From a virus (lineage: Duplodnaviria; Heunggongvirae; Uroviricota; Caudoviricetes): a DNA stretch of 18,542 nt. Positions 491-18,542 of the stretch are shown here, one piece after another. The notes beneath the pieces were generated by a model. That model worked only from the letters and a program-made list of their open reading frames with translations, had not been told where the DNA came from and searched no databases. Each line of letters begins with the position of its first letter. The stretch's first letter is position 1. Made by a program: the position numbers and the translations under genes. The stretch is taken from positions 1-18,542 of IMG/VR virus record IMGVR_UViG_2541047913_000008. The stretch is one strand, 5' to 3'.

Positions 491-496
491 CGCCTG

Positions 497-2716: not shown

Positions 2717-2727
2717 GTCCATAAGAA

Positions 2728-3274: not shown

Positions 3275-3385
3275 GTCTTTTTCCGGTTAACGTGACACAC
3301 CAATAACTCTTGTCGAAAAAGCCAGCAAGCTGAAAGACCGGTATTCACCGCCGCCAGCGCGTTTACTGTACTGGACCGATTTCAG

Positions 3386-3412
3386 CCATAAAAAACCCGC
3401 TCGCGGCGGGTT
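3386..3412 (-). terminator. tR'-like intrinsic terminator about 60 nt downstream of Q
   Basis: On the minus strand: ACCCGC-cgcga-GCGGGT followed by TTTTTTAT (plus 3388-3412). Position matches the lambdoid late terminator that Q modifies RNA polymerase to read through. Confidence 0.6.
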
Positions 3413-3470
3413 TAAGCTGTGTGGCGTAGTAACCACTCTTAACATACTGACATACTTTTTGCGGACCGCG

Positions 3471-3863: not shown

Positions 3864-3880
3864 CAACTTTCTCCACAAAA

Positions 3881-4876: not shown

Positions 4877-4922
4877 CTCAGCGAACGGTATTGCATGAAC
4901 GCAGGAGAAAAAAATTCAGCCA

Positions 4923-5180
4923 TCACGCAGTAAACTCCTTCACCAGCGTTTCAAACTGGCTTACCTGGCCTTCCAGTTCCGCCACGCAATCCACCAGCTC
5001 ATCCACCGCCTTTTGTGTGCGGTGTTTTGCCTGCAGCAGATCACGAAGCGCCGGAGTAAGCTGCTTGCGGAGCGTATCCTTTGCCACGCTCATTTTTTCC
5101 ATCTGTTCAGCACAACGAAGCATCTCCTGCGCCTGCCGACGAAGTTGTTCCGGTGAAACAGTGGTTGTTCTGTTATTCAA
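4923..5180 (-). CDS. Hypothetical coiled-coil protein
   Basis: 85-aa ORF. TTG start overlaps the DnaB-like stop (TTGA). Heptad-like charged sequence. The real start could instead be an internal Met. Confidence 0.4.
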   Translation of the reverse strand: MNNRTTTVSPEQLRRQAQEMLRCAEQMEKMSVAKDTLRKQLTPALRDLLQAKHRTQKAVDELVDCVAELEGQVSQFETLVKEFTA

Positions 5181-6577
5181 AATAAACGCTCCGTTTTACT
5201 GCCCGACATGCGGTTATTGCTGTATCTGCGCGGATTGCTCGGCGTCATGGGTGAGGAAAGAACCTGAGCACTCTCCTGGTCCACAGGCAGAAAATGTCCG
5301 TTATGAAAACGCCGGTAAATGGTCCCGAGTGTGCCATTACGCTGTTTCGTAATGTTGATTTCTGCTATGCCTCTGGCCTGTGTATCCGGGTTATACACCT
5401 CATCCCTGTAAAGCATCAGAATGATGTCGGCATCAGCCTCTATTTCCCCGGAGTTTTTCAGGTCTGAGTTCATGGGACGTTTATTGGGTCTGGATTCCAC
5501 GCCTCGGGAGAGCTGGCTCAGAGCAATCAGCGGGAAACCGCCGGATTTTGCCAGGCTTTTAAGTCCCTTTGAGATTTCCCCCACCGCAAGGTCGTGACGC
5601 CCCGTGCTGCGGGTTTTAATCAGGCCGAGGTAATCGACCACCACCAGCGCCGTTTCCGGGTGTTTCATCCGGTGGTGCTTCGTGGTTGCACATATCTCAT
5701 CAATGGTCAGGTTTGCCTGGTCCACCATCCAGATATTACGCCCCGTCATTCGTCCCACGCCCTGCGAGAAACGCGCCCAGTCTTCATCTTCAAAACGGGC
5801 AACAGACTTAAGACGGGATACCGGCATTCCACCGGCAGCAGACACCATACGTTCACCAATCTGGATGTTCGCCATCTCCATGGTGAACAGAAGCACGCCA
5901 TGCCCCTGCTCAGTCACCTTGTCGATGATGTCCAGCGCAAGTTCGGTTTTCCCCATCGAAGGACGGGCGGCAATGAATACCAGGTCTCCGGGCTCCATAC
6001 CGCCCGTTTTTGCGTCCAGTTCATCAATACCGGTCATCAGCGCCCTGGATTTCTCCAGTCCCTGATTGCGGCATTCAACACGGTCGACCACTTCCGGAAG
6101 GACATCATCAATGTGAACCGGCTGAATGACGCCCTTTCCGGTCGACAGTGAGGCCATCATGTTCTGCACATCCTTCAGGGCATCCTCGGCTGCTTCACAG
6201 GTATACGCATCACGTAAATTCTGTAATGCTTCAGTCAGTGTTTTTTCTGCATCGCGCAGTGCGGCATTGCGCCGCAACGCTGCGACATAGTGCTCCAGTG
6301 AAGACTTCACCCAGGTTTTGCGTCCGGTGTCGGTAATCACCGGGGCAAGTTCCGGCATCTCATTGCACAGCAGTACGGGGTCAATGACGCCGGATATGCG
6401 AGCCTGTCTGCAAATCCCCGCGTAAATATCCCGGTACTGACGCACAAAAAATACATCCGCCGGAAGTGTGGCCAGAATATCCATCACTTCCGGATCGGCC
6501 CCACGCAGAAAAAACGCACCGATGACAGCGCCTTCCAGGTCATCGTTACGCCATGCCGGGGTGTTCTGGCTGGTCAT
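5177..6577 (-). CDS. DnaB-family replicative DNA helicase
   Basis: 466 aa. Walker A in FIAARPSMGKTELALD; DnaB-like N-terminal domain; ATG with GGAGG ribosome-binding site; 4-nt overlap with the upstream gene. Confidence 0.8.
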   Translation of the reverse strand: MTSQNTPAWRNDDLEGAVIGAFFLRGADPEVMDILATLPADVFFVRQYRDIYAGICRQARISGVIDPVLLCNEMPELAPVITDTGRKTWVKSSLEHYVAALRRNAALRDAEKTLTEALQNLRDAYTCEAAEDALKDVQNMMASLSTGKGVIQPVHIDDVLPEVVDRVECRNQGLEKSRALMTGIDELDAKTGGMEPGDLVFIAARPSMGKTELALDIIDKVTEQGHGVLLFTMEMANIQIGERMVSAAGGMPVSRLKSVARFEDEDWARFSQGVGRMTGRNIWMVDQANLTIDEICATTKHHRMKHPETALVVVDYLGLIKTRSTGRHDLAVGEISKGLKSLAKSGGFPLIALSQLSRGVESRPNKRPMNSDLKNSGEIEADADIILMLYRDEVYNPDTQARGIAEINITKQRNGTLGTIYRRFHNGHFLPVDQESAQVLSSPMTPSNPRRYSNNRMSGSKTERLF

Positions 6578-7473
6578 GCGGCAACACCTCCGATACGAGA
6601 ACGGTAGCTGGGCCAGTTAAACGACAACCAGTTGCGCCCGCCATCGGTGATCCTGTCGGCAATCCGGGGACTGATGAACGCCCACAATTCTTCCGGTGAA
6701 AGATTGCTGATCAAGATAGTTGGCAAAATACCCTCATACCGGGCATTGATAATTTCCTGCAAAATGGCCATTTCAGCCGCACTGCCAAACTGAACGCCGA
6801 CTTCGTCGACAATCAGCAAATCCAGTGACGCATAATGCTCAATGACGTCATCCGCTGTTTTTTCACTGTCATTCCGCCAGCAGTTTTTCACAGCCCGGGT
6901 AAGGCGCATCACGTCGGTGATCTCCACACTGGCCAGATAGTTACGGATGATGTGTTTTGCCATTGATACCGCCAGATGATTTTTCCCGGTACCGCAACTG
7001 CCGGTCATAACAAGACTGGTACCGTTCTCCAGCATATCTGGCCAGTTCTCCGCATAGCGGCGACAGGCCGCAAGATTTCTGGCTGCGTCAGGATTAACCT
7101 CCAGATAATTATCAAACTCGCAGTCCCGAAAACGCAGAGCAATTCCGGCGTTATCAGTCAGTTCTTCCGCCTTGAGGGACGACAGTTCCATGGTCAAATC
7201 ACTGGCCTCAGCGATCAAGCAGTCAGGGCAGCATGAAATTTTTTCTCTGTCCTCGCCATTACGATCGATCCACACCAGTATATGCGTACGATATTTACCG
7301 TGTTTTTCGCAATATCCGCGACCTTCACGCATCAGGCAGGAACGATAAGGCCATGGCTTTTCGCCCTTCTGAGCAAATGCAATCTCTGCCCGTAACTCAT
7401 CCATTTCTGCCCGTAAATCATCCATTCGCGCCTGTAGTCTTGTTTGTTTCTCACGTTGGTCAATCATCATCAT
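6574..7473 (-). CDS. DnaC/IstB-like AAA+ helicase loader with N-terminal Cys/His cluster
   Basis: Walker A LVMTGSCGTGKNHLAVS; Walker B-like LLIVDEVG. ATG at 7473 follows a GAGGTG ribosome-binding site; the track start at 7482 is a GTG. N-terminal CEKHGKYRTH...CCPDC. Confidence 0.75.
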   Translation of the reverse strand: MMMIDQREKQTRLQARMDDLRAEMDELRAEIAFAQKGEKPWPYRSCLMREGRGYCEKHGKYRTHILVWIDRNGEDREKISCCPDCLIAEASDLTMELSSLKAEELTDNAGIALRFRDCEFDNYLEVNPDAARNLAACRRYAENWPDMLENGTSLVMTGSCGTGKNHLAVSMAKHIIRNYLASVEITDVMRLTRAVKNCWRNDSEKTADDVIEHYASLDLLIVDEVGVQFGSAAEMAILQEIINARYEGILPTILISNLSPEELWAFISPRIADRITDGGRNWLSFNWPSYRSRIGGVAA

Positions 7474-7483
7474 CGCTGTCACC

Positions 7484-8476
7484 TCAGAATGTCAATTTGT
7501 TACTGGATTTACCAAATTTGTCAGACATGGCTCCCAGGCCAGCCAGGACATCGACCTGTCGCTGTCGCCCACCTCCGTGAGCGGCTGGCTGTTGCCAGTA
7601 ATCTTCGAAGTGACGATCGGGTCCAAAGAACGTCGCAGCCTGCTTCACGAACTGTGTGCCGGTATTTCCTGTAGCACGTACCCAGGCGGCATACCGCTTC
7701 ACGCCATCAAGCATGGTCTCCGGTTTTATTCCCTCCCTGATACGGGCTTTCCAGGCTTTGAAGGCTGCTGACTTGGAATTGCCACCAGCACGTTTGGGAT
7801 ATTCCTGCCAGGCCTGTTCAAATTCCGGTGAATATTCCTGTCTGGCAGAACGCGCTGGTGCAGACGCGTCAGCGGATGCGCCAATAGTGTTTTTAGTCTC
7901 CGTTGTAATCTCTGTAGTAATCTCTGTATTTGTATCAACATTCGGCGTATCCCCTGTTCCGTTACGACGTCGGGGGGTGTTCCGTTTTAACGTAATAGCT
8001 GTATCGCTGATTGCATTATTGCTGTTACTTTCTGGCGAAACAGAAGAAGGTGTGGTGATGGCCGCAATTGCCTGTGGGTTGATCCCGACAAACAAAATAT
8101 TGCTACATTTCACCCCATCGAGCATTTCCACCGTGCGTAAATCCAGAGTAATAAACCCGGCATCACGGAGACGCTTCAGCGCATCTGCGGTTTCCCTTTT
8201 CCCGAAACCAAACTGCTCAGCAAACGCCTGGTAGCTTCTTTGCAGTTTGTCGCCCTGAAAACGCTTGCGATATCCCAGCAACGCTCCGGTGTGCTCATCC
8301 CTGACCTCTGTCGGGCGGTACCAGTAAACGATCTCTGAAAGCAGAGCGATAGCCGTCGCATCCGGACGCCCACTGGGTAGTCGAATATATTTCCACCAGG
8401 TCGCAGGTGTAACATTGCCGGAAATATTAATTTGACCAATAGCCATAACTTCCGGTGTGGGGGCGTAACGGCTCAT
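7484..8476 (-). CDS. Replication initiator (O-like, replisome organiser)
   Basis: 330 aa, ATG with GGAAGGAGG ribosome-binding site, directly upstream of the DnaC-like and DnaB-like genes. Contains a low-complexity linker (TNTEITTEITTE) encoded by direct DNA repeats, as in the lambda O gene. Confidence 0.6.
   Translation of the reverse strand: MSRYAPTPEVMAIGQINISGNVTPATWWKYIRLPSGRPDATAIALLSEIVYWYRPTEVRDEHTGALLGYRKRFQGDKLQRSYQAFAEQFGFGKRETADALKRLRDAGFITLDLRTVEMLDGVKCSNILFVGINPQAIAAITTPSSVSPESNSNNAISDTAITLKRNTPRRRNGTGDTPNVDTNTEITTEITTETKNTIGASADASAPARSARQEYSPEFEQAWQEYPKRAGGNSKSAAFKAWKARIREGIKPETMLDGVKRYAAWVRATGNTGTQFVKQAATFFGPDRHFEDYWQQPAAHGGGRQRQVDVLAGLGAMSDKFGKSSNKLTF
7897..7986. repeat. Iteron-like direct repeats inside the O-like gene (candidate origin of replication)
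   Basis: Three ~12-bp units TCTCCGTTGTAA / TCTCTGTAGTAA / TCTCTGTATTTGTA (about 7897-7935), plus two copies of GTTCCGTT about 30 bp apart (about 7949-7986). Confidence 0.4.
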
Positions 8477-8772
8477 ACAACCTCCTTCCGCAGCATGAGA
8501 ATTGTGTAGCCACGCGCAGGTTGTAGTCTGGCTTTTGCATCAATAGTAAGCGTTGCAATTTTTCGGATATGAAGATAACCAGCTCTTTCCAGTGCCAGGG
8601 TTTCCCTGAATATCGCTTGCTTAGAACAACAGCAGAAATCAGCAAGCACCTGATGATCAATAACTCTCTCGCCTTCACCGTCTGAAGAACCCGACATCAA
8701 AACACGCAACATAATCAGGCGCTGAATCGGGTTATCGAAAGCACATCCGCACACAAACTGAAAACAGTTCAC
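8473..8772 (-). CDS. Hypothetical protein
   Basis: 99 aa. GTG start with GGGAGG ribosome-binding site; 4-nt overlap with the flanking genes. Confidence 0.4.
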   Translation of the reverse strand: MNCFQFVCGCAFDNPIQRLIMLRVLMSGSSDGEGERVIDHQVLADFCCCSKQAIFRETLALERAGYLHIRKIATLTIDAKARLQPARGYTILMLRKEVV

Positions 8773-8993
8773 GCCACACCTCCCAGACGCTTAAACATTT
8801 TTCCGGAGCAAAAGGCTATAAGCGGCATACTGATGCGGTAATTACGGCCCAGCGGTTCACAAATCACCTTCTGACATTCACGGTCAACCAGGCTGACACG
8901 TAGAACATGCCCTGCAGGCGTGGTGTACCACTGACCAGGACGAGGACAACGGAAAGTCTGATTGGTAAACCGTTTGAAAATATTCCGGATCAT
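8769..8993 (-). CDS. Hypothetical protein
   Basis: 74 aa. ATG overlaps the stop of the Rha-like gene (ATGA). Confidence 0.4.
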   Translation of the reverse strand: MIRNIFKRFTNQTFRCPRPGQWYTTPAGHVLRVSLVDRECQKVICEPLGRNYRISMPLIAFCSGKMFKRLGGVA

Positions 8994-9535
8994 TTGCGCC
9001 CCCTTACCTCTGAAGGGTTCAGCGACAAATTTATGAGACTGGCCAGTAGCGCCGCGTCGTTGATGCGGTCATACAGACTTACAGCCAGCGGGGATTCGGC
9101 TTTTGCCAACATGGGATAAAGCTGCTGCAGCCAGACCTGATGAATTGATGAAATGTAGGAATAGAGAACGCTGGCGTTATGTGCAACGTCGCTCAGTACA
9201 GAGGGATTTGAAAGCTGTTTCTCCATCTGGTTAAAGGCATTGATGTATGCCTCTTTGAACTGGGCAGCACGTTTACCCGTGAAACCCATAGCAAGAAACG
9301 CAAAGCCGTCGCGGGTTATTTGATAGCAAGGTAGTTTGCGGCCTGTGCAATCGGTGTAATCACTCACCGAAAAATTGCGGGAAGTGAATGATGCAGAGCA
9401 TTCAAGCGTGCGGATCTTTTTCAGTACATCGTCATGACGTTTGGAGAAGAAGTTGGCAACAGCCAGGGATGAAGTAACAGCCTGACCATCAACGATGGCA
9501 ATTTCAGGTTGAGTGAGGGTTGGGATCGTAGCCAT
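8990..9535 (-). CDS. Rha-family phage regulatory protein
   Basis: Motif VTSSLAVANFFSKRHDDVLKKIRTL matches the Rha N-terminal signature. ATG at 9535 has a GGAGG ribosome-binding site. The ORF-track start at 9835 adds 100 residues rich in Ala/Gly/Ser/Pro that do not look like protein, so I prefer 9535. Confidence 0.6.
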   Translation of the reverse strand: MATIPTLTQPEIAIVDGQAVTSSLAVANFFSKRHDDVLKKIRTLECSASFTSRNFSVSDYTDCTGRKLPCYQITRDGFAFLAMGFTGKRAAQFKEAYINAFNQMEKQLSNPSVLSDVAHNASVLYSYISSIHQVWLQQLYPMLAKAESPLAVSLYDRINDAALLASLINLSLNPSEVRGRK

Positions 9536-9699
9536 GATGGCAGCCTCCGTTGACTGTGGAAAACTTCCACCACCGGAGCTGCGAAACTCACTGGTGGCAG
9601 ACTGAACAGGGTTCGCAGTACCGGCGTCAACGGAGACCGGCGAGCCTTTCGGCTCCCCTGCCCAGCCCACCATAATTCTGGCGTGCGTGAGCGCGGACG

Positions 9700-9721
9700 A
9701 TAAAAAAGACGCTGGCGCGTC
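9700..9721 (-). terminator. Minus-strand intrinsic-terminator-like hairpin between the cro-proximal genes and the replication genes
   Basis: On the minus strand: GACGC-gcca-GCGTC followed by TTTTTTAT (plus 9701-9721). Short 5-bp stem. Confidence 0.35.
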
Positions 9722-9918
9722 ATATATCGCCGTTGACAATTCCGGGCTGCGACCCCCGGCACCCGCTTTATAAGGTGCCTGAGCAGTGTAACGTCCCGGA
9801 ATTGCAGAATCAATATTTGGTCTTGAAATGATCATATAGCTGCTGATATCTTTAGAACTGTTCTTGGATGTTTCGGAGCCGTTTTATGCGAAACAGCTCC
9901 CCGTTATTGATGTTGAGT

Positions 9919-9944
9919 GAGCCGGGTTACTCCCGGCTTTTTTT
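9919..9944 (+). terminator. Plus-oriented intrinsic terminator abutting the stop of the 235-aa gene (oop-like arrangement)
   Basis: Stem GAGCCGGG/CCCGGCTT region (9919-9937) with 5-nt loop, followed by TTTTTTT (9938-9944). Antisense to the early-right operon, as the lambda oop terminator is. Confidence 0.5.
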
Positions 9945-10651
9945 CATCGCTGCCAACCAATAACCTGAAATAACCCCATTTTCGGGTGATACCAGCGAGT
10001 CCCTCGCGGTTCTGCTTCCTCCATAACCCGATAAAAAGCAGCCATAAACGGTTCCACAGCAACAATTGCGCGACGTGACAACAATCCGTCCGGCGTCATG
10101 AACTCATGTGTGTCTGTAGGAATTTGATAGGCGTTCACCAGATTGCGGCATTTATCATCTGACAAACCGGTTTTTGCTTTCAGTTGGCGATATCCGGCAT
10201 AGCCCTCACGAATAGTGCCCTTTTTAATTTGCTCGACTGTTTCAGCAACGTGGCTGACTTTTTCTTCCACCTGAGTGATCCGTTTCTGTTGGCGAACGGC
10301 TTCAAGAGCCATCGCGGCAACCATTTCGATTTCGCTCATTGGCTTACGGATCTGTTCTTCCAGTTCGCGCCAGCGATCTACCAGGCGAGCTGTGAATTCA
10401 GGACAGAGCTGTGCGACGACAATGATGCTGTCGCGCTTACCTCGTTCACCTTCGAATACATACGCGCTAGAAAATCGGCGAGGCCCAAGTGATTGTTTAT
10501 TCTCAATTTCCACAGTCTGTGGAAATTGGATGATTCCCTTTTTAGCCAGTGTTTCAATAGTTCTCTTAACACTATCTGGTCGGCTTCCCACCAGCTCTGC
10601 GATCTCAACGCTGGTCATGGATGCTTTGCCGTTAAAAATTGCGGTGTTCAT
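9944..10651 (-). CDS. Phage regulatory protein in the cII position, Rha/antirepressor-like N-terminus
   Basis: 235 aa. ATG overlaps the cro-like stop (ATGA); AGGAG ribosome-binding site. N-terminal segment SVEIAELVGSRPDSVKRTIETLAKKGII looks like a helix-turn-helix. Family assignment tentative. Confidence 0.5.
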   Translation of the reverse strand: MNTAIFNGKASMTSVEIAELVGSRPDSVKRTIETLAKKGIIQFPQTVEIENKQSLGPRRFSSAYVFEGERGKRDSIIVVAQLCPEFTARLVDRWRELEEQIRKPMSEIEMVAAMALEAVRQQKRITQVEEKVSHVAETVEQIKKGTIREGYAGYRQLKAKTGLSDDKCRNLVNAYQIPTDTHEFMTPDGLLSRRAIVAVEPFMAAFYRVMEEAEPRGTRWYHPKMGLFQVIGWQR

Positions 10652-10938
10652 TGTTTATCTCCTGCGTGTATTCCATCCGCTCTGTGTGGTGAACTTGGAT
10701 TTAGGCTTTTGCGTAACAAGTTAGGAATTCCATCTTCAGGGTGAGGATAAAGATCTGGCCTTAAGCCATGAGGCGTAACCTTCCATGCAACTACTTCACA
10801 TACTCGTAAAACGAAACGAGCAGGAATTGTGCTTTTTGAAAACCACTGATTCACCGCTTGCGGCGTCACACCAAGATTTCGCGCTATGGCATTTTGCGCA
10901 ATTAATGCACGAAGTTTGTCGTAATCATTTCCTTCCAT
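10648..10938 (-). CDS. cro: Cro-like (YdaS-type) helix-turn-helix regulator
   Basis: 96 aa, divergent from cI. Helix-turn-helix IARNLGVTPQAVNQWFS. Weak ribosome-binding site. Confidence 0.6.
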   Translation of the reverse strand: MEGNDYDKLRALIAQNAIARNLGVTPQAVNQWFSKSTIPARFVLRVCEVVAWKVTPHGLRPDLYPHPEDGIPNLLRKSLNPSSPHRADGIHAGDKQ

Positions 10939-11071
10939 AACAAAACACCAATATTAACTTTATAAATCAAGAATACATCAAGTTTAAATTAACATGCAAG
11001 TTACAAAAGGATCGAATACACTAAAATCAAGTAAAGATTTATCCTTGTAAAGAAACCCACAGGATTTGGTC
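10939..11071. promoter_or_regulatory. Divergent cro/cI control region (right-operator-like promoters and operators)
   Basis: 133-bp AT-rich spacer between divergent cro-like and cI genes. Repeated motifs AAATCAAG / CATCAAG / AAATCAAG and CTTGTAAAG. Confidence 0.55.
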
Positions 11072-11761
11072 ATGAAGAACGTCAAAAACACGGAAAATCG
11101 AATAGCCGCGATGCTGAAAGCAAAAGGATGGACTCAGGCTCAACTGGCCCGCAAGTTAGGTGTGAGTGCGCAATCAGTGCAGTACTGGACAACAGGAAAA
11201 ACATTTCCACGGAGTGATAAGCTCGCGCATTTATCAGAGATTAGCGGTTATCCACAATCCTGGTTCTTAGGTGAAGACTCCTCACCAACCTTTTCCTCGC
11301 AAGAGAAACACCAGACAAGAACAGATAGCGTCGTATTTAATGTCCTTGATGTTGAGTTTAGTTGCGGTGATGGAACTCATGTCCGTGGTGACTTGATAGA
11401 TGTAGTGCGCTCAATAGAACTTGATCCTGAATATGCCCGACGTCTTGTTGGAAATCGGGCATTCAAAAATATAGAAATAGGTAACGCCAGAGGAGACAGT
11501 ATGGCTCCCACAATCTCACCTGGCGACCTTCTTTTTCTTGATAAGACAGTAACTTATTTTGATGGCGATGGTATTTATGCATTTTGTTTTGATGGAGAAT
11601 GCTACGTGAAAAGGCTTCAAAAAATTGGAAGCAAAATCATGGTGTTATCTGATAACCCCAATTATCAACCATGGAGCATCGAAAAAGAGGGGTTAGCTCT
11701 GCTTTATATCCAGTCTAAAGTGATCTCATCAGTACCATTCAACATAAACAGATTTGGTTAG
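11072..11761 (+). CDS. cI: cI-type prophage repressor (N-terminal helix-turn-helix plus C-terminal S24 LexA-like autopeptidase)
   Basis: Helix-turn-helix WTQAQLARKLGVSAQSVQYW; S24 motifs GDSMAPTISPGDLLFLD and YVKRL. ATG at 11072 with AGGA ribosome-binding site; the track start at 11066 is a TTG. Confidence 0.85.
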   Translation: MKNVKNTENRIAAMLKAKGWTQAQLARKLGVSAQSVQYWTTGKTFPRSDKLAHLSEISGYPQSWFLGEDSSPTFSSQEKHQTRTDSVVFNVLDVEFSCGDGTHVRGDLIDVVRSIELDPEYARRLVGNRAFKNIEIGNARGDSMAPTISPGDLLFLDKTVTYFDGDGIYAFCFDGECYVKRLQKIGSKIMVLSDNPNYQPWSIEKEGLALLYIQSKVISSVPFNINRFG

Positions 11762-11772
11762 TCTTTGATTTT

Positions 11773-11797
11773 AACGGGCTTTGCCCGTTTTTTTCTG
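11773..11797 (+). terminator. Intrinsic terminator after cI
   Basis: AACGGGC-tttg-GCCCGTT followed by TTTTTTT. Confidence 0.65.
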
Positions 11798-11824
11798 CCT
11801 GAAATATACGATATCAATTTTTTC

Positions 11825-11853
11825 TTGACAGCCTGTTTCCCAAAACATAATAT
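11825..11853 (+). promoter_or_regulatory. Near-consensus sigma70 promoter (candidate left promoter or cargo promoter)
   Basis: -35 TTGACA (11825-11830), 17-bp spacer, -10 TAATAT (11848-11853). Palindrome ATCAAttataacTTGAT lies just downstream (11860-11876) and shares ATCAA/CTTGAT with the cro/cI control region. Confidence 0.55.
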
Positions 11854-11906
11854 CGCACCATCAATTATAACTTGATTTGATTCAATTTAAAATTGTTGGC
11901 GGATAT

Positions 11907-12455
11907 ATGAAGACACTAAAAGCAACTCCAGAAACAACTAATTTTATCAACTGCGGCTGTGTTACGCTTAAGGGCTTAGAACTTGATTCCTTTGCATTAA
12001 ATATTGCAAATTTGCTAAGTGCTGTACGCACATTCCATCTTCTGGATTGTGCTCGCTCAAAGGAACTGGGCATTGAGGTAATGGAATTTATCCATGAATA
12101 TGCTCTATCTGCTGCTTCTCCTGCACAGCAAAAACAATCCTTCCCTGAAAGCTGGCTGGTTAACCTTCGCACCCAACGCGAAGCCTGCGGCTTAACAACC
12201 GCCGAACTCGCCAGGCTGCTCGATCTCGATGAAGAAATTATCATCCAGTGGGAGAGCGGAGAGTACGAACCAACCATCAGCATGCTTATCCCACTGGCAA
12301 ATATTCTTGGCTGCGATCCGATGTGCCTGTTAACTGGTGAGGTTACTCCTCCGGAGAAACCAAAAAGTGAGGAGCAGCAACACCATGACGCATCTCAACA
12401 AGTTTGCCCCTTATCTCGCGAAGCTCTTCTGCGGAAGAACCAATACCAATGGTGA
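11907..12455 (+). CDS. XRE-family helix-turn-helix protein with unrecognised ~95-aa N-terminal domain
   Basis: ATG at 11907 (the track start at 11877 is a TTG). C-terminal helix-turn-helix LTTAELARLLDLDEEIIIQWESGEYEPTISMLIPLANILGCDPMCLL. First gene after the promoter. Confidence 0.55.
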   Translation: MKTLKATPETTNFINCGCVTLKGLELDSFALNIANLLSAVRTFHLLDCARSKELGIEVMEFIHEYALSAASPAQQKQSFPESWLVNLRTQREACGLTTAELARLLDLDEEIIIQWESGEYEPTISMLIPLANILGCDPMCLLTGEVTPPEKPKSEEQQHHDASQQVCPLSREALLRKNQYQW

Positions 12456-12583
12456 CATAATCGCCGCTTCGCCCTTCAAGGTACATGCGAACATTTTTAT
12501 CAATCATTGCGGAAACAGTCTCAATATGAAAACACTTCTGAGACTCGCTATATAGCAGAACATATAAGTCAGCTGAGGAAGCC

Positions 12584-12949
12584 ATGAAAAAGTTCGAAAA
12601 CATAACTGTTCTCCATGTTGATGACTTTGATTATACAAACCCGGAACTTCTCCCGGAGGTTGTAAAGGCAATAGATGTTGCCGATATAGTGATTAGAGAA
12701 AAGAGAATTGTCAAAAACAGGCTCGCATGCACTTCAGGAGCAATGACAGAAACAACCTCACAGCAAGATAATTACGAAGGCATTTGTCTGGAGCCTGATT
12801 CATTTGCGGTAAATGTTTATCATTTATTGCATGCAACACAGGTATTACATATGTCCAGTAATCACGAAACGAAAACACTCGGCAGCGAAATTCTGAGTTT
12901 TGCATGTGAGTATACAAAAGCTGCTGCCGAAAAAGAATTAGCGCAATAA
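12584..12949 (+). CDS. Hypothetical protein, no family recognised
   Basis: 121-aa ORF. ATG with GAGGAA ribosome-binding site 5 nt upstream. Confidence 0.5.
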   Translation: MKKFENITVLHVDDFDYTNPELLPEVVKAIDVADIVIREKRIVKNRLACTSGAMTETTSQQDNYEGICLEPDSFAVNVYHLLHATQVLHMSSNHETKTLGSEILSFACEYTKAAAEKELAQ

Positions 12950-13027
12950 CAACAAATATGCCCTGAACGTTTATTGCGGTTTTATCGCCGGGGATTGTTA
13001 CAACCTTAATCCACAGGAGGCTTTATT

Positions 13028-13141
13028 GTGACTTTTATAAAGAATATGGCATCACACAAGACCGCCTGCCTTATTGCACAATACGGTGAAAATTACATGC
13101 ATATTGCCTGCTTATTTCTGCGTAAAGCATACGGGAGATAA
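13028..13141 (+). CDS. Small upstream ORF (37 aa) with perfect Shine-Dalgarno sequence; possible leader peptide
   Basis: AGGAGG 7 nt upstream of GTG at 13028; stop 2 nt before the ATG of the next gene. Not in the ORF track because it is short. Confidence 0.3.
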   Translation: MTFIKNMASHKTACLIAQYGENYMHIACLFLRKAYGR

Positions 13142-13143
13142 TA

Positions 13144-13344
13144 ATGCATCAGAAAACAGCAGAACACGAACAAACCAGAGTATTGCTGACCATCAAAAAC
13201 GGGAAAGTAATATTCATTCGCCATGTTCATGACGATGAACTTGTAGGAAATCTTTCAACATTCCTGTTTATTGCAGAAAAGGCAGGATATGACGTTATTG
13301 CACCAGCAGATGAAGATGAAGATGAAGATGAAGATGAGGAATAA
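13144..13344 (+). CDS. Small protein with poly-acidic C-terminal tail
   Basis: 66 aa, GGAGA ribosome-binding site. C-terminus ADEDEDEDEDEE is encoded by a GATGAA tandem repeat. Confidence 0.5.
   Translation: MHQKTAEHEQTRVLLTIKNGKVIFIRHVHDDELVGNLSTFLFIAEKAGYDVIAPADEDEDEDEDEE
13309..13338 (+). repeat. In-frame hexanucleotide tandem repeat (GATGAA x4 plus GATGAG)
   Basis: Read directly: gatgaa gatgaa gatgaa gatgaa gatgag at the 3' end of the 66-aa gene. Confidence 0.9.
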
Positions 13345-13349
13345 ATATC

Positions 13350-13931
13350 ATGCAATACGATGAATTCCAGGCTGAAGCAACAGCCAATGGTATACGAACT
13401 GGCAGTATGACGATTGATTATCACGACGCCATACGTCGTCTGGATGCCGGAGAATTCGATACTCCTAATGTGCGAGGTTTACGTATCCTTCAGTGTCTGG
13501 CGCAAGCCGACGAAGCAGGATTACTGGGTAAACTTCCGGTTGAGATGAAGGTTGCTCAGTGGCGATGGTTGTATGTGACGACATTCATCAACGAAGAAGA
13601 AGACAAGAACGGCACAATTGATATCCTGAATGAACACGGAACAACTGAACACGCCGTGGTATATAACGGGATGTATGGGTTTATGACGATATATCCCGGC
13701 CCCATTCGATTTGCCTTACAACAGTATATTGAATGGAATTTAATTCAAAAATACGGCGAAGCTGAAGGAATGGGAAGAGCGCTGTTTCTTTATCAGAAAA
13801 TGCTCACTACTTCCCCTGATAAAGGTTTCATTCTTTCAGATATGGGTCGAGAAGGGCTTGAAATCCTTCTGGATGAAATTATTAACGAAATGAATACTCA
13901 TGGCATGCAATCCGAAACAGATATTAAGTAA
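13350..13931 (+). CDS. Hypothetical protein, translationally coupled to the acidic-tail gene
   Basis: 193 aa. ATG 6 nt after the upstream stop, with GAGGAA as ribosome-binding site. No family recognised. Confidence 0.5.
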   Translation: MQYDEFQAEATANGIRTGSMTIDYHDAIRRLDAGEFDTPNVRGLRILQCLAQADEAGLLGKLPVEMKVAQWRWLYVTTFINEEEDKNGTIDILNEHGTTEHAVVYNGMYGFMTIYPGPIRFALQQYIEWNLIQKYGEAEGMGRALFLYQKMLTTSPDKGFILSDMGREGLEILLDEIINEMNTHGMQSETDIK

Positions 13932-13941
13932 AAGGGACCAC

Positions 13942-14163
13942 ATGACCGTTATCGAGCATATCCAAGAAAATCCAGATTGCAGTAGAGAAGATATATCCCT
14001 CGCATTTGGAAGAAGCGCAACTTCTATCAGTAATGAATTATCACGGTTATTGTGGAATGGGTTAATAGTACGAACTGGAGAAAAAAACAAAATGATTCTG
14101 TACTGCGTAAACAATCTGCCGTTTGGATACAGCAATCCCCTAAGTGTTATGTTCAACCAGTGA
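13942..14163 (+). CDS. Small winged-helix-like protein (hypothetical)
   Basis: 73 aa from the internal ATG at 13942 (the upstream part of the track ORF overlaps the previous gene). Helix-turn-helix-like EDISLAFGRSATSISNELSRLLWNGLIV. Confidence 0.4.
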   Translation: MTVIEHIQENPDCSREDISLAFGRSATSISNELSRLLWNGLIVRTGEKNKMILYCVNNLPFGYSNPLSVMFNQ

Positions 14164-14206
14164 TAGTGATGTTCCGACAGGAGAGAGCAGAGAAAGGGGA
14201 ATCAGC

Positions 14207-14866
14207 ATGAAATTTTCCAAATTTTCTGAGTTGGTGAATCGTATTTTGTCCAACAACCACAGCCATCGTCGCGATATGGATGTAACGATCGTTGTTCATT
14301 CGCCTGGCAGCATTGGTTCAACACCCTCAGTTGAAGTTCAGTCAATTCACGCTGGTTTTGATTGGGATTCCGGGAAAGTGCTGATTTTCCCAGCACAGCC
14401 ACTGACCACTCTAACACCAGAACAGATTACTGATATTACTGATAGTGTGCGCAAAGGTCAGTCCTGGCACGCATATCAGGAATACAAGAAGCATAAAGAG
14501 CAGTTGGAAAAATTATCGATTGAACTTGATGCCGCAAAACAGCGCATTGCAGAGCTGGAGGGTAATTTCACGGCGCTGGCAGCGGAGAATGCGGGGCTAA
14601 AGGCGATATGTGATGACCGTCGCAGGTTCATCATGAATGGGGTGCAGATGGGTTATATCAAGGTGCCAGCAGCGGAAACAGATCCAGACCTTGAGACAAT
14701 TCGCATTGCTATATCACCACAAAAGCCCATTCCAGCCACCGATGCTTTCCTGGCTGAAGTACGGGCGCAGGGCGTGGAGATGTTTGCGGAGTGTGCATAC
14801 ACGCTTGAACATCATGATCACGCAGTAGCCTTCGCCGCTGAGCTTCGCAAAGGAGGCAACCAGTGA
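14207..14866 (+). CDS. Ead/Ea22-like early protein with central coiled coil
   Basis: ATG at 14207 with AAAGGGGA ribosome-binding site. Coiled coil EQLEKLSIELDAAKQRIAELEGNFTALAAENAGLKA. Family call is from memory of E. coli prophage annotations. Confidence 0.45.
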   Translation: MKFSKFSELVNRILSNNHSHRRDMDVTIVVHSPGSIGSTPSVEVQSIHAGFDWDSGKVLIFPAQPLTTLTPEQITDITDSVRKGQSWHAYQEYKKHKEQLEKLSIELDAAKQRIAELEGNFTALAAENAGLKAICDDRRRFIMNGVQMGYIKVPAAETDPDLETIRIAISPQKPIPATDAFLAEVRAQGVEMFAECAYTLEHHDHAVAFAAELRKGGNQ

Positions 14867-15348
14867 GCGAAATTAATTACCAGGCACTGCGTGAGGTGGC
14901 GGAACGTGCAATTCCAGCAATGGAACGCCTGTTAATGTTGCCAGCTGATGATGACTTGTTAAGTGAACAGGAACTTAAAGATTACGGTGTGGATATTGAT
15001 GCGCTCAACGCCTTCAAATTTCTGACCGGACCAGAAACCGTGCTGGCACTGCTGGATGAACGGGAAAGAAACCTGCAATACATCAAAAGCCGCGATCAGG
15101 AGAACGAGGATATTGCGCTAACGGTAGGGAAGCTGCGCGTTGAGCTTGAAGCAGAAAAACAGCGGGCAAAAGTTCTATTTATGGAAAATGCTCGGCTTAA
15201 GTCAGGCATAGCCGGTCTGATACACCTCGGTATTCGATATGCAGATGTTGAGGTCATGAAAATTGCTGGAGATGCCCAGCTTTCTACCCCATGCACTGAC
15301 AGCATCATAAACAGCATTGCAACAGGCATTCGCATCAAAGGAGAGTGA
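14863..15348 (+). CDS. Hypothetical early protein (Ea22-like N-terminus, coiled coil)
   Basis: 161 aa. GTG start with AGGAGG ribosome-binding site, overlapping the upstream stop. Confidence 0.45.
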   Translation: MSEINYQALREVAERAIPAMERLLMLPADDDLLSEQELKDYGVDIDALNAFKFLTGPETVLALLDERERNLQYIKSRDQENEDIALTVGKLRVELEAEKQRAKVLFMENARLKSGIAGLIHLGIRYADVEVMKIAGDAQLSTPCTDSIINSIATGIRIKGE

Positions 15349-15349
15349 T

Positions 15350-15613
15350 ATGGCAACTTTGACAAAAAAAGAACAAGCATGGTTGAGCGAATTACAGGAC
15401 GTTCTTGATCGCTGTCCATCACCGAAAAAAATTGGTTTTTACACCATTGGCGATAAAAGCATTTACCTGTATGACCTGCGCCGCATGGATGAAATCATGG
15501 AGGCTCTTGATAATCGTTCGTCGATGGATTGGTGTGTTGCTGTTCATGATATGAATGCAGGGTTTGATGAAAAGATTTTGTTCCCCTCATCAGTTGAAAG
15601 CACTGCGGGTTAA
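15350..15613 (+). CDS. Hypothetical protein
   Basis: 88 aa from ATG at 15350 with AAAGGAGAG ribosome-binding site. Confidence 0.45.
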   Translation: MATLTKKEQAWLSELQDVLDRCPSPKKIGFYTIGDKSIYLYDLRRMDEIMEALDNRSSMDWCVAVHDMNAGFDEKILFPSSVESTAG

Positions 15614-15623
15614 GGAGTAACAC

Positions 15624-16451
15624 ATGACCACTATAACCAAAGAGCGACTGCTGACAATCAAGCAGTGGCGCGAAACATACGGACCGGGTAGCAACGTTGT
15701 GCTTCCAGCAGAAGAAGCGGAAGAGCTGGCACGAATTGCACTGGCATCACTGGAACGCGAACTGATTCGCCACGAGCATGCCAAATGGTCTGACTCCACA
15801 TTTGGCTGCGTTGGCCCCATTGGTCCACTGAAACACCTCTCAAAAGAGGCTCTGGAAGCCGCAGCCGAACCAGACGATCTCAGCGAGTGGGCTGATATGC
15901 ATTTCCTGTTGTGGGATGCACAGCGCCGTTCTGGCATCAGCGATGCTGAAATTACCGCTGCTATGGAAGATAAATTGAAGATCAACATGGAGCGCCAGTG
16001 GCCTGAACCAAAAGATGGTGAGCCTCGCTTGCACATTAAAGAACCCGGCAACTCTCCGGTAATTCCGGATGGTTTATCCACGGTACGAGCTGAGGCTTAT
16101 CAGGTTGTAGGAGTTATGGCAGATGCGCTTGGTGTATTCGGTGATGCAGCAGTACAGAAAGTTCTGGATAACCTGTCACAGCAAAAACTTGTTCACAGAG
16201 ATGTGCTGCCGTTCTCGCTTCCGGTAACTCCGGATGGTTGGATAAGCTGTAGTGAGCGAATGCCGAACGATAAACAGTATGTTTGGTGTTGGGGTAAGTC
16301 TTACGGCTGGACTGAGTGCGATACCTTCGAAGGGTATTACGATTGTTCGAGAAACAAATGGTGGGCAGTTACTGACAATGGGGAAGAACCGGCATCGAAA
16401 GTAACCCACTGGATGCCGCTGCCAGAACCGCCGCAGGAGGTGAATCAATGA
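15624..16451 (+). CDS. Two-domain phage protein: MazG-like or DUF550-like nucleotide pyrophosphohydrolase N-domain plus DUF551 C-domain
   Basis: 275 aa, AAGGAG ribosome-binding site. N-terminal acidic motif EEAEELARIALASLERE; C-terminal WISCSERMPNDKQYVWCW...KWWAV...VTHWMPLPEPP resembles DUF551. Confidence 0.55.
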   Translation: MTTITKERLLTIKQWRETYGPGSNVVLPAEEAEELARIALASLERELIRHEHAKWSDSTFGCVGPIGPLKHLSKEALEAAAEPDDLSEWADMHFLLWDAQRRSGISDAEITAAMEDKLKINMERQWPEPKDGEPRLHIKEPGNSPVIPDGLSTVRAEAYQVVGVMADALGVFGDAAVQKVLDNLSQQKLVHRDVLPFSLPVTPDGWISCSERMPNDKQYVWCWGKSYGWTECDTFEGYYDCSRNKWWAVTDNGEEPASKVTHWMPLPEPPQEVNQ

Positions 16452-16531
16452 GCTGGCCTGATGCAATCGTAACTCTGGGGATGGTATTCGCAGTAGCGTT
16501 TGTTGTGTACTCGATTTGTCGATGGGGATAA
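16448..16531 (+). CDS. 27-aa hydrophobic peptide (MSWPDAIVTLGMVFAVAFVVYSICRWG)
   Basis: ATG overlaps the stop of the upstream gene (ATGA); one predicted transmembrane helix. Not in the ORF track because it is short. Confidence 0.35.
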   Translation: MSWPDAIVTLGMVFAVAFVVYSICRWG

Positions 16532-16535
16532 CCAC

Positions 16536-16778
16536 ATGTTCGCTTTGATTCAACGCGGGCAGATATACACCGATAGTGCTGGCTACCCGATAAAAATTGT
16601 TCGCTGCATAAACAACACTGTTTTGTACAGAAGAATGGATGGGCGAACACAGTCAGTAAAAATAAACGATTTCAATGAACTGTTTGAACGGATTGATCAC
16701 CAGGAATACCGACAAATTCTGGCAGAAACAGAGCAGGAAGCTCATCTGAAAAAATTACGGGCCATGAAAAGGAAGTAA
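16536..16778 (+). CDS. Hypothetical protein
   Basis: 80 aa from ATG at 16536. Confidence 0.4.
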   Translation: MFALIQRGQIYTDSAGYPIKIVRCINNTVLYRRMDGRTQSVKINDFNELFERIDHQEYRQILAETEQEAHLKKLRAMKRK

Positions 16779-16781
16779 ACA

Positions 16782-16928
16782 ATGAATAAAGCATTTGAAC
16801 AATGGGTCCACCAGCGTTACGGCAATCGCTATGACCTGACACGAGATGTTGACGGTTTCTACTGTCGTGAAATTGTGAAACGAATGTTTGAAGTGTGGTG
16901 CCACTGCCGTGGGCTGAGTGTTGTGTGA
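16782..16928 (+). CDS. Hypothetical small protein (48 aa)
   Basis: ATG with AGGAAG ribosome-binding site. Translation MNKAFEQWVHQRYGNRYDLTRDVDGFYCREIVKRMFEVWCHCRGLSVV. Not in the ORF track. Confidence 0.35.
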   Translation: MNKAFEQWVHQRYGNRYDLTRDVDGFYCREIVKRMFEVWCHCRGLSVV

Positions 16929-16936
16929 GGTAATGC

Positions 16937-17173
16937 ATGGGCAATGTGATTCAACTGGCTCCCAATGAATGGGTTTGTGAAAGCGTTCTAATCGCAATTA
17001 CCGGGCTCAAACCAGGCACAATTCTTCGGGCCCGGAAAGAATGCTGGATGGTTGGAAGAGAGTATATTCACGTATCACCAGACGGTAATCCAAAGCCTTC
17101 CAGTGAATGTATGTATAACAGAAAAGCAATAGATGCCTGGGTCGCTTCAATGAAAAACAAACAACCTGGGTGA
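16937..17173 (+). CDS. xis: Excisionase-like protein
   Basis: 78 aa, immediately upstream of int. Winged-helix-like NEWVCESVLIAITGLKPGTILRARKE...GREYIHV resembles the lambda Xis pattern. Confidence 0.55.
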   Translation: MGNVIQLAPNEWVCESVLIAITGLKPGTILRARKECWMVGREYIHVSPDGNPKPSSECMYNRKAIDAWVASMKNKQPG

Positions 17174-17228
17174 TTTAATGCCATGAAGTATGTAAGCTCG
17201 TATCGCTCTTGGGCGTCTGGAGGTATCA

Positions 17229-18542
17229 ATGGATAAAGTCAAATATCCAACAGGCGTCGAAAACCACGGCGGCACATTACGCATCTGGTTTAATTTTAAA
17301 GGTAAACGTGTCAGGGAAAATCTTGGTGTCCCTGACACTGCCAAGAACAGGAAGATCGCCGGGGAACTGCGGACATCGGTATGTTTTGCCATCCGCACAG
17401 GAAGCTTTGATTATGCTGCACAGTTCCCTGACTCCCCCAACCTTCAGGCTTTTGGGGTAAGTAAAAAAGAAATTACGGTGAAGGAACTTGAAGAAAAGTG
17501 GCTGGATCTGAAACGAATGGAAATCTCTGCAAATGCATTCAATCGCTATGAATCCGTTGCAAGAACGATGGTTTCGAAAATTGGAGGCAGTAGACTGGTG
17601 TCATCGGTAACCAAAGAGGAATTGCTGTATATCAGGAAAGATTTGCTGACCGGGTATCAGAATTCAACGAAAAACAAAGCAGCAGCAAAAGGACGGAGCG
17701 TCGTTACTGTAAATTATTACATGACGACAATCGCTGGAATGTTTCAGTTTGCTGCAGATCACGGTTACTTAGAAGCAAATCCCTTCCAGGGAATTAAGCC
17801 TCTTAAAAGAGCCAGGGCAGAGCCAGATCCGCTAACTCGTGACGAATTTATTCGCCTGATAGATGCTTGCCGACATCAGCAGACGAAAAACCTGTGGTCA
17901 TTGGCTGTGTACACAGGAATGCGTCACGGTGAACTGGTCTCCCTGGCCTGGGAAGATATCGATCTGAAGGCAGGAACAATTACCATCAGGCGCAATTATA
18001 CGAAACTTGGTGAGTTCACTCTACCGAAAACTGAAGCAAGCACAAACAGGGTTGTGCACCTTATCCAGCCCGCTATCAGTGTCCTGAAAAATCAGGCTGA
18101 AATGACAAGACTGGGTAAGCAGTACAACATCAAGGTGCAACTACGTGAATATGGACGTTCAGTGAACCATGAATGTACTTTCGTGTTTAACCCTCAAGTG
18201 GTTAGAAAAAGCGAACAGGTAGGTTTTGTCTACAAAGTCGATTCTGTAGGTGACTCATGGGAAACAGCCATTAAGCGTGCAGGGATCAGGCATCGAAAGG
18301 CATACCAGTCACGACACACTTATGCGTGCTGGTCATTATCTGCCGGAGCAAACCCAAGCTTCATTGCCAGCCAGATGGGCCATGCAAGTGCCCAGATGGT
18401 ATTCAATGTATACGGAGCATGGATGACTGACAGCAATGCAGAACAGATCGCAATGCTGAATCAGAAGCTGACAGATTATGTCCCAATGATGCCCCATAGT
18501 CACCAAAGTGACACCAGAGGCTTATTAAAATCAGTAAGTTAA
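17229..18542 (+). CDS. int: Tyrosine site-specific integrase (phage integrase family)
   Basis: 437 aa, GGAGG ribosome-binding site. Catalytic-domain motifs (RHGEL...HRKAYQSRHTYACW...GHASAQMVFNVYGAW). Stop codon is the last three bases of the window. Confidence 0.9.
   Translation: MDKVKYPTGVENHGGTLRIWFNFKGKRVRENLGVPDTAKNRKIAGELRTSVCFAIRTGSFDYAAQFPDSPNLQAFGVSKKEITVKELEEKWLDLKRMEISANAFNRYESVARTMVSKIGGSRLVSSVTKEELLYIRKDLLTGYQNSTKNKAAAKGRSVVTVNYYMTTIAGMFQFAADHGYLEANPFQGIKPLKRARAEPDPLTRDEFIRLIDACRHQQTKNLWSLAVYTGMRHGELVSLAWEDIDLKAGTITIRRNYTKLGEFTLPKTEASTNRVVHLIQPAISVLKNQAEMTRLGKQYNIKVQLREYGRSVNHECTFVFNPQVVRKSEQVGFVYKVDSVGDSWETAIKRAGIRHRKAYQSRHTYACWSLSAGANPSFIASQMGHASAQMVFNVYGAWMTDSNAEQIAMLNQKLTDYVPMMPHSHQSDTRGLLKSVS

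Follow-up and report, generated by a model that had tools for sequence, protein, structure and literature searches.

What are three short, tightly packed open reading frames (ORFs) doing in a phage genome, and what does a hexanucleotide repeat inside one of them mean for its product? The question is raised by a stretch of 18,542 nucleotides (nt), referred to here in its entirety as the window, which corresponds to positions 1 to 18,542 of the IMG/VR virus record IMGVR_UViG_2541047913_000008 (Caudoviricetes). A 37-amino acid ORF preceded by a perfect AGGAGG ends 2 nt before a 66-amino acid ORF whose poly-acidic tail, ADEDEDEDEDEE, is encoded by four GATGAA units and one GATGAG; a 193-amino acid ORF follows. 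These features had been picked out by a model that saw only the DNA letters and their translations (the sequence-only reading), and all of their coordinates were confirmed (Table 1). The explanation that we favour, and consider rather probable, is that the three are real genes and make up a small accessory cassette, closely spaced and coupled in translation, within the early-left operon under repressor control in a phiP27-like prophage at yecE, with an accessory role for which the length of the acidic tail is not critical.

The first ORF was compared with its counterparts in phages phiP27 and ASU11, which start with ATG, are 73% identical to it at the amino acid level and differ from it at many third codon positions. 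In its own frame the Nei-Gojobori proportion of synonymous differences (pS) was 0.71-0.84 and that of nonsynonymous differences (pN) 0.15-0.16, a ratio of about 0.2; in the other two frames pN/pS was 0.8-1.0 and above 2.8. Because the ratio is low only in its own frame, the 37-amino acid ORF is a genuine gene under purifying selection. The frame is intact in 16 of 16 distinct nucleotide versions, with a GTG start codon in the window and ATG in other lineages, and the peptide is basic (isoelectric point 9.5). More distant copies of 30-37 amino acids (50-57% identity) are present in phages phi467 and CharmingMan and in Aeromonas phage AsXd-1, and prophages of at least 18 Enterobacteriaceae species have homologues (18 representatives, from Citrobacter, Enterobacter, Trabulsiella, Atlantibacter, Pseudocitrobacter, Kosakonia, Raoultella and Superficieibacter, with one record labelled Chryseobacterium). 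Twelve positions are invariant across the homologues, and conservation between genera extends over the entire peptide. The C-terminal codons GGG AGA (13133-13138) are at the same time the Shine-Dalgarno sequence of the 66-amino acid gene. The ending ...L(F/Y)L(R/K)KAYG(R/K)-stop (...LFLRKAYGR-stop in the window) is invariant despite codon variation (GGG AGA, GGT CGG, GGA AGG, GGG CGG), which places the constraint on the peptide and not solely on the embedded Shine-Dalgarno sequence.

In every junction inspected, the stop codon of the small ORF is followed within a few bases (two in the window) by the ATG of the next gene. The gene that follows is L07-like in phiP27-type phages, and elsewhere an unrelated gene of about 120 amino acids, here called gene X and conserved in more distant phages and prophages, which was located between the small ORF and the L07-like gene at 2156-2515 in locus L004, 1952-2374 in locus L006, 1786-2151 in locus L009 and approximately 2600-3200 in loci L096-L113. 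A possible relationship between gene X and residues 65-184 of the 193-amino acid protein was weak (hhalign probability 23%, E 9e-4) and was not relied on. The sole annotation of the 37-amino acid ORF is that by RAST in phage PhiR49_2; PGAP omits it in RefSeq genomes. Its family had no PHROG or Pfam match, and queries by accession, PHROG id and motif did not find it in the searchable literature.

The second and third proteins, which the sequence-only reading had regarded as unrecognisable and, in the case of the 193-amino acid protein, as an orphan, are members of catalogued phage families. The 66-amino acid protein matched phrog_340 ('unknown function'; E 2.8e-22, residues 2-65 on profile positions 17-80 of 85), the family of phiP27 L07, to which it is 51% identical. 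The 193-amino acid protein matched phrog_1515 ('unknown function'; E 3e-90, residues 1-192 of 193), the family of phiP27 L06, to which it is 65% identical. Both are full-length profile matches, and the poly-Asp-Glu expansion is not a feature of the phrog_340 family. A family profile search returned 143 relatives of the 66-amino acid protein with 54-73 residues from Escherichia, Klebsiella, Salmonella, Raoultella and Enterobacter, and tblastn with divergent members added Fels-1, mEp237, SEN34 and Stenotrophomonas phages, in which all are called 'hypothetical'. In near-identical records the 66- and 193-amino acid ORFs are annotated by both PGAP and RAST.

An alignment of 36 sequences placed the conserved part of the 66-amino acid family at approximately residues 8-55, with G20, E32, F40, G48-Y49 and P54 invariant. 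The AlphaFold2 model of the protein alone, a prediction that the sequence-only reading had proposed, consists of a β-hairpin (12-28) and a helix (37-46) with a predicted local distance difference test (pLDDT) score of 88-94 in the core, followed by a low-confidence tail that is predicted to be disordered. The net charge is −12 for the whole protein, −1 for the core and −11 for the disordered tail, and the family median is −2. After Pro54 the relatives end in PPAKEQTL (phiP27-type) or in APNTEKQ or ...EEISGTNSNTHS (Klebsiella-type), and ADEDEE and its expansions are confined to the E. coli lineage of the window. Because the core has a charge of only −1, the family median is −2 and relatives do not have the poly-Asp-Glu sequence, the poly-acidic character is a lineage-specific property of the tail and not of the fold or the family. 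A solved-structure fold search with the AlphaFold2 model returned no match and a Pfam scan of five distant relatives found nothing; PF27490 is precomputed for two relatives. In O157:H7-type prophages the gene carries a 1-nt frameshift (about 4 of 60 sampled genomes, ~7%) with its neighbours intact, which points to dispensability in the prophage state.

L07-like proteins with very different cores in Klebsiella and E. coli phages (locus L004, ~2680-2750; locus L005, ~1290-1350; loci L009 and L090) have a common C-terminal ...D(S/I)(D/N)SNT(N/H)S, and conserved nucleotides (TGA GTGGGTGCACCTGCAGG...) follow this tail; the shared stretch may mark a point of recombination or have a regulatory function. 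The lambda PL operon likewise encodes a tiny poly-acidic peptide, that of orf28 next to ral (locus L114, 6772-6858; MEEEFEEFEEHPQDVMEQYQDYPYDYDY), which is unrelated in sequence to the three proteins.

The hexanucleotide repeat was scored at 60 by Tandem Repeats Finder (period 6, 5.0 copies, 100% matches). No other perfect hexamer array of several copies exists in the 18.5-kb window, and this one far exceeds chance expectation. Counting the units in homologous prophage loci, as the sequence-only reading had suggested, gave 2, 3, 4, 5, 6, 7 or 8 GATGAR units (60-72 amino acids) in loci that are otherwise near-identical. Proteins of 60, 62, 64, 66, 68, 70 and 72 residues were all found; the 60-68-residue forms fall into one 90% cluster, and those of 60 and 62 residues each occur in at least 1000 contigs. 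An identical 193-amino acid protein (WP_001199104.1) is encoded downstream of alleles with 2 to 7 units. Flank haplotypes were defined by the small ORF, the core of the 66-amino acid gene and 590 nt of the 193-amino acid gene, about 870 identical nt, and more than one copy number was present in 7 of the 15 haplotypes with several members (for example 2/5/8, 3/5/6 and 4/5/6). The anticipated in-frame slippage is borne out by these identical flanks with different numbers of units, and the copy number changes faster than point substitutions accumulate. Since the unit is 6 nt long, no allele breaks the frame and the length of the tail alone changes; all alleles also retain the downstream Shine-Dalgarno sequence.

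Allele frequencies were determined in 60 evenly spaced genomes of the 203 complete genomes with the segment, with the units implied by match lengths. Two units accounted for ~72%, three units for 18% and four or more for 10%, and in the ~90% identical Shiga-toxin (Stx) phage lineage all copies have two. The repeat behaves as a usual microsatellite in which short arrays are stable and longer ones unstable. It resembles contingency loci and variable-number tandem repeats in that it is a tandem repeat in a coding region whose slippage copy number differs on identical sequence, but unlike contingency loci it has a 6-nt unit and resides in a prophage early gene rather than in a surface or modification gene; when it was assessed as a phase-variable locus, copy number varied among close relatives, but the in-frame 6-nt unit gives no on/off frameshifting. 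The prophages of E. coli S4 and R14 (loci L115 and L116, same study), both at yecE, contain the same three genes and an identical 193-amino acid protein with 5 versus 2 units. This pair was considered as recent slippage in one clone and proved uninformative, as the two are prophage variants with different immunity regions (XRE-type versus LexA-type repressor, and different Q regions). No mention of the repeat as a typing locus was found in the literature.

The same nucleotides have a second task, because the last repeat unit and the final Glu codon contain the Shine-Dalgarno sequence of the 193-amino acid gene (Table 1). In phiP27 and ASU11 the equivalent tail codons are AAGGAG, and the L07 stop and L06 start codons overlap as ATGA. 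The purine-rich 3′ end of the 66-amino acid gene, made up of Glu, Asp and Lys codons, is thus constrained at the RNA level. That the tail codons double as a ribosome-binding site offers a simple way for an acidic tail to have arisen and for the short ADEDEE to have been kept where the core has diverged to 83%.

The 193-amino acid protein is ~41% identical to proteins of Klebsiella prophage-like phages, AsXd-1, CharmingMan and phi467. When 1.84 billion cluster representatives (50% clustering) were searched exhaustively with HMMER, 75 relatives emerged, nearly all of them stand-alone proteins of approximately 190-220 amino acids. The protein is acidic (net charge −14; family median −11), and its AlphaFold2 model is a mixed α/β fold (pLDDT 87.7, predicted template modelling score 0.83). 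A fold search with this model against solved structures and viral models gave no match, a Pfam scan of 48 family representatives gave 0 domains, and profile searches with both the 66- and the 193-amino acid families against the sequences of solved structures gave no credible hit. The combination that would have refuted the sequence-only reading, an invariant repeat together with a known housekeeping role of the 193-amino acid protein, was not found: the repeat number varies and the protein is no known housekeeping protein. The last ~7 residues (MQSETDIK; window 13900-13931) are unlike the mostly conserved GMP(E/D)xPV(T/M)H end of the relatives, which puts a mosaic junction within the 3′-terminal part of the gene. 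Genes for SPFH (band-7) proteins are close to the 193-amino acid homologue in an O157-type prophage (locus L015, 2030-2088) and in Klebsiella phage P18-100 (locus L005, 2129-2956).

The description of the three ORFs as a coupled trio was supported by their spacing and by their shared history. The genes are separated by 2 and 5 nt, and the last codons of each upstream gene carry the Shine-Dalgarno sequence of the next. Sliding identity to the Stx-phage lineage rises from ~50-60% to 86-99% at ~12950-13000 and returns to ~50% after ~13900; as these changes fall at the edges of the trio, the shared block comprises exactly the three genes. Compared with phiP27, the neighbouring L08 block is 98% identical and the trio 55-80%, a contrast that again locates a mosaic junction immediately before the small ORF. 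Prophages that differ in their immunity regions were also found to carry the cassette with an identical 193-amino acid protein. The two families occur in the same order and operon position (between L08 and the excisionase-integrase end) in phiP27 (Stx2e; L07/L06), ASU11 and Stx1a/Stx2a prophages at yecE or ompW, and phiP27-type systems have the same small ORF upstream and L07 translationally coupled to L06. The L07 proteins of phiP27 and ASU11 differ from that of the window in their PPAKEQTL end, the absence of the repeat and the ATGA overlap with L06. All of these counterparts, in phiP27 and in the Stx lineages, are annotated 'hypothetical' and offer no function that could be transferred.

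The region around the trio is 99.7% identical to chromosomal prophages of E. coli. Among 5426 complete E. coli genomes, 320 gave a match, which was chromosomal in each of them and in 0 cases on a plasmid, and in phage records the identity was 98.5% for PhiR49_2, ~90% for a series of Stx1a/Stx2a-converting prophages and ~70% for phiP27 and ASU11. In the best match the RefSeq gene order is a lambdoid replication and regulation module, a LexA-family cI, a helix-turn-helix (HTH) gene, three 'hypothetical proteins', Ea22-like and DUF genes, excisionase, integrase and yecE. On the basis of this gene order and the phage-record matches, the window is identified as a phiP27-like lambdoid prophage at yecE with the trio between the immunity region and the excisionase and integrase genes. 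Rha and Roi are also among the neighbours of the trio in E. coli genomes that carry the region. The plasmid records that were hit were mostly non-mobilizable and many had the size of a phage genome (20-41 kb); only four were conjugative, and no hit was placed in a leading region.

The proposal that the genes are expressed early is consistent with the arrangement of the regulatory elements upstream. A terminator-like hairpin directly after the cI-type gene is followed by a strong PL-like promoter sequence (Table 1), and operator-like ATCAAG/CTTGAT half-sites occur several times in the cI-cro intergenic region (10960-11035) and again just downstream of the PL-like −10 element (11855-11900); these repeats are probably the OR and OL operators of this immunity type. 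No plus-strand terminator was predicted between the PL-like promoter and position 14300. Because the layout of terminator, promoter and operators fits the expectation for OR and OL, we infer that the trio belongs to a repressor-controlled early-left (PL-type) operon, about 1.2 kb from its start. The trio families had no similarity to the small proteins of the lambda PL operon (Kil, CIII, Ral, Orf28, Ea10, Gam, N and others).

Within the operon the trio is preceded by an HTH gene (phiP27 L10) and then a 121-amino acid gene (phiP27 L08). The 121-amino acid L08 protein and the N-terminal part of the DicA-like HTH protein L10 (window 11877-12455 and 12584-12949) match the same PHROGs, 4587 and 5451. 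The two seem to share a domain, and L08 could be a paralogue of the regulator L10 without its DNA-binding domain; the PGAP version of L08 has 68 amino acids only (12743-12949). On the minus strand, the O-like and DnaC-like replication genes contain short tandem repeats at 7385-7426 (21 nt, 2 copies), 7745-7766 (9 nt, 2.4 copies) and 7897-7928 (12 nt, 2.7 copies), which could be origin iterons.

Table 1. Positions of the cassette, its genes and signals, and the upstream regulatory features in the window
Feature	Position	Strand	Remark
Mosaic block (cassette)	12950-13900	+	exactly three genes; 80-99% identity with Stx-phage lineages, both flanks unrelated
AGGAGG Shine-Dalgarno sequence of the small ORF	13015-13020	+	7 nt 5′ of GTG 13028
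Gene for the 37-amino acid basic micro-protein	13028-13141	+	GTG start; TAA 13139-13141, 2 nt 5′ of ATG 13144
66-amino acid ORF	13144-13344	+	C-terminal end ADEDEDEDEDEE
Conserved core of the 66-amino acid protein, residues 1-55	13144-13308	+	phrog_340 / phiP27 L07 family; net charge −1
In-frame microsatellite (GATGAA)4 GATGAG encoding (DE)5	13309-13338	+	followed by GAA TAA
GAGGA Shine-Dalgarno sequence of the 193-amino acid gene	13336-13340	+	formed by last unit GATGAG and final GAA; 9 nt 5′ of ATG 13350
Last codon GAA (Glu66) and TAA stop of the 66-amino acid gene	13339-13344	+	
Gene for the 193-amino acid protein	13350-13931	+	starts 5 nt after the stop of the 66-amino acid gene; phrog_1515 / phiP27 L06 family
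cI-type repressor gene	11066-11761		
Intrinsic terminator-like hairpin and T-run	11773-11789	+	directly 3′ of the cI-type gene
PL-like sigma-70 promoter TTGACA-17-TAATAT	11825-11853	+	prediction, score 10/12; probable start of the early-left operon

In the explanation that we favour, the trio would be expressed early, after loss of the repressor. Gene 1 encodes the conserved basic micro-protein of 30-37 amino acids, whose stop codon lies a few bases before the next start codon, and gene 2 a small domain of a β-hairpin and a helix to which a mildly acidic, disordered tail is attached. In the E. coli lineage of the window, a (GATGAA)n microsatellite has developed from the purine-rich 3′ end of this gene, and replication slippage alters n between 2 and 8 in frame to give a poly-Asp-Glu tail with 5 to 17 acidic residues. 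Gene 3 encodes the acidic protein of ~190 amino acids with an unmatched fold. Our best guess is that genes 2 and 3 encode dispensable cytoplasmic proteins that may bind a host or phage protein early in lytic growth, with the acidic tail as a flexible polyanionic appendage and not the functional core. Since relatives do not have the expanded tail and one identical gene 3 protein occurs beside 2-7 units, we infer that the exact tail length is not critical and would be nearly neutral or at most modulatory. Searches of the literature for the trio genes by accession, PHROG id, peptide motif and repeat unit found nothing.

Several observations weigh against parts of this explanation. The short ancestral ADEDEE is retained in lineages whose core has diverged to 83% identity, and many relatives of the 66-amino acid protein have an acidic patch directly after Pro54; some of the acidity of the tail may be selected, and the overlapping Shine-Dalgarno sequence could explain this pattern too. 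Several independent contigs retain long arrays of 7-8 units, as could also be the case if longer tails were selected for. With respect to the cassette, tight spacing is common in phage genomes and insufficient by itself as proof of translational coupling, and distant phages keep the order small ORF, gene X, L07-like gene, other genes, L06-like gene, with intervening genes present. Among 18 genomic loci, 6 have a full-length L06-like and 13 an L07-like gene. Because other genes separate the three in distant phages, the trio is linked and co-inherited in phiP27-type phages but not an obligatory three-part system. The function assigned to genes 2 and 3 is itself a guess.

Of the alternatives, the one that fares best is the suggestion that small, very acidic early proteins are often DNA mimics or anti-restriction factors. 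It would have the 66-amino acid protein, alone or with the 193-amino acid protein, imitate nucleic acid and block host restriction or another DNA-targeting defence early in infection, with slippage tuning the tail in an arms race. The early-operon location, the charges of −12 and −14 and the acidic 193-amino acid family, the setting in a mosaic accessory cassette, the recurrent variation in tail length on identical backgrounds and a 193-amino acid protein that is no known housekeeping protein are all features that would be expected. T7 Ocr and ArdA are likewise small, acidic, early proteins on mobile elements, but they present their charge on a rigid folded surface that imitates B-DNA. The fold of the 66-amino acid protein is near neutral (−1) and its charge sits in a disordered tail of variable length, and no sequence or fold similarity of the trio proteins to mimics of the Ocr/ArdA type was found. 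The acidic C-terminal tails of T7 gp2.5 and E. coli SSB make protein contacts by electrostatic mimicry of nucleic acid, and the 66-amino acid protein is like them in having a flexible acidic C-terminal tail on a small folded domain. However, tails of the SSB type have a fixed length and a conserved terminal aromatic residue and are attached to DNA binders with an oligonucleotide/oligosaccharide-binding (OB) fold, whereas the core here is neither basic nor an OB fold. The poly-Asp-Glu tail is missing from most family members, phiP27 L07 among them, the commonest allele has only two units (~72% of sampled genomes), and O157-type prophages have a pseudogene in its place. When the three proteins were scanned against Pfam, NCBIfam and PADLOC, no hit rose above noise; the structural searches described above matched neither model, and the plasmid records do not place the genes in a conjugative leading region. 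The early location and the acidity of the 193-amino acid family speak for the suggestion, but the near-neutral core and the missing domain and fold matches count against it, and we regard mimicry as unlikely.

Distinctly unlikely, in our view, is a role of the 37-amino acid ORF as a cis-acting leader whose nascent peptide, within the exit tunnel, pauses the ribosome at the stop codon and gates initiation downstream. The arrangement that had earned the ORF the description 'leader-like' is real. Like the attenuation or arrest leader peptides trpL, TnaC and SpeFL, it is very short, has a strong Shine-Dalgarno sequence, ends beside the next start codon and is about the length of the exit tunnel. 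All homologues have 30-37 residues, the C-terminal ...LRKAYG(R/K)-stop is invariant despite codon differences, the stop codon precedes the next ATG by a few bases whichever gene follows, and the family is absent from PHROGs and Pfam. Unlike those leaders, it has no terminator/antiterminator hairpin or room for one (2 nt) and no run of regulatory codons, and it is conserved over its full length; purifying selection on the whole peptide would equally fit a trans-acting micro-protein, and tight spacing is normal in phage operons. RNA folding around the small-ORF junctions revealed no stable or unusual structure (z-scores −0.41 to +0.32) and no alternative structures at the junction with the next gene (z = −0.41). 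An Rfam scan gave no family at the gathering score, and the single match below E 1 reached 18.6 bits against a threshold of 86. A leader of the attenuator type was rejected on account of the 2-nt gap, the lack of alternative terminator/antiterminator hairpins and the absence of a predicted plus-strand terminator. What became of the 'leader-like' label is that the position fits, but the peptide itself is widely conserved under purifying selection and attenuator-type RNA structure is lacking.

The 66-amino acid protein showed weak but significant cross-matches to the C-terminal parts of two PHROGs labelled anti-repressor, phrog_4792 (E 4.3e-5, positions 199-240 of 268) and phrog_2379 (E 7.9e-4, positions 127-175 of 187), and these recurred with a Klebsiella relative. 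The protein might accordingly be a stand-alone version of the C-terminal module of phage anti-repressors that binds a repressor-type protein at the lysis-lysogeny switch and not a host protein, as would suit its regulator neighbours (cI, the DicA-like HTH protein and a downstream winged-helix protein). But the PHROG label may stem from the N-terminal domains of these two families, and no Pfam anti-repressor domain (ANT/KilAC, P22_AR, ORF6N/C, BRO-N) was found. The domain of the 66-amino acid protein was absent at E < 1 from the anti-repressor genes that phi467 and CharmingMan have beside their 193-amino acid homologues, and tblastn with divergent members led to 'hypothetical protein' genes only. 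A search with the family hidden Markov model against all ORFs of related loci, together with tblastn, detected no fused or annotated anti-repressor form. We consider this role very unlikely. Slimmer still is the chance of a combination in which the 37-amino acid peptide represents a new class of regulatory nascent peptides, gating in cis the translation of any accessory gene placed behind it in the early operon of a widespread group of temperate enterobacterial phages, and in this lineage drives an acidic effector pair of two proteins, the poly-Asp-Glu tail being a slippage-tunable nucleic-acid mimic directed against a host DNA-binding defence or nucleoid protein. The idea that the 37-amino acid frame is open by chance within an untranslated leader and that assembly artefacts account for the differences in repeat number could appeal to the missing PGAP annotation and to some database entries of the 66-amino acid protein that are frameshifted fusions from error-prone assemblies, but its probability is negligible given frame-specific purifying selection, conservation to 50-57% identity across genera in an always intact frame, an array of 12-48 nt that is much shorter than a sequencing read, and the recurrence of the same alleles in complete genomes as well as in contigs that number hundreds to thousands.

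The cassette is one of many uncharacterised phage accessory modules, and no new mechanism is indicated so far. The 66- and 193-amino acid proteins represent catalogued but uncharacterised phage families, within which the length-polymorphic poly-Asp-Glu tail is new for phrog_340. The 193-amino acid family, with a confidently predicted fold that has no known relative, is a candidate for structural and functional discovery. A conserved micro-protein gene missed in RefSeq stands at the head of an accessory block in the early operon of numerous enterobacterial prophages, those of Shiga-toxin phages among them, and provides a concrete target for studies of small proteins and translational control. 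The series of 2-8 Asp-Glu units on otherwise identical backgrounds constitutes a natural experiment on the length of an acidic tail, and the repeat could serve as a fine-scale marker with which to track prophages of the yecE type through E. coli lineages, for example ST131 and Shiga-toxin-producing E. coli.

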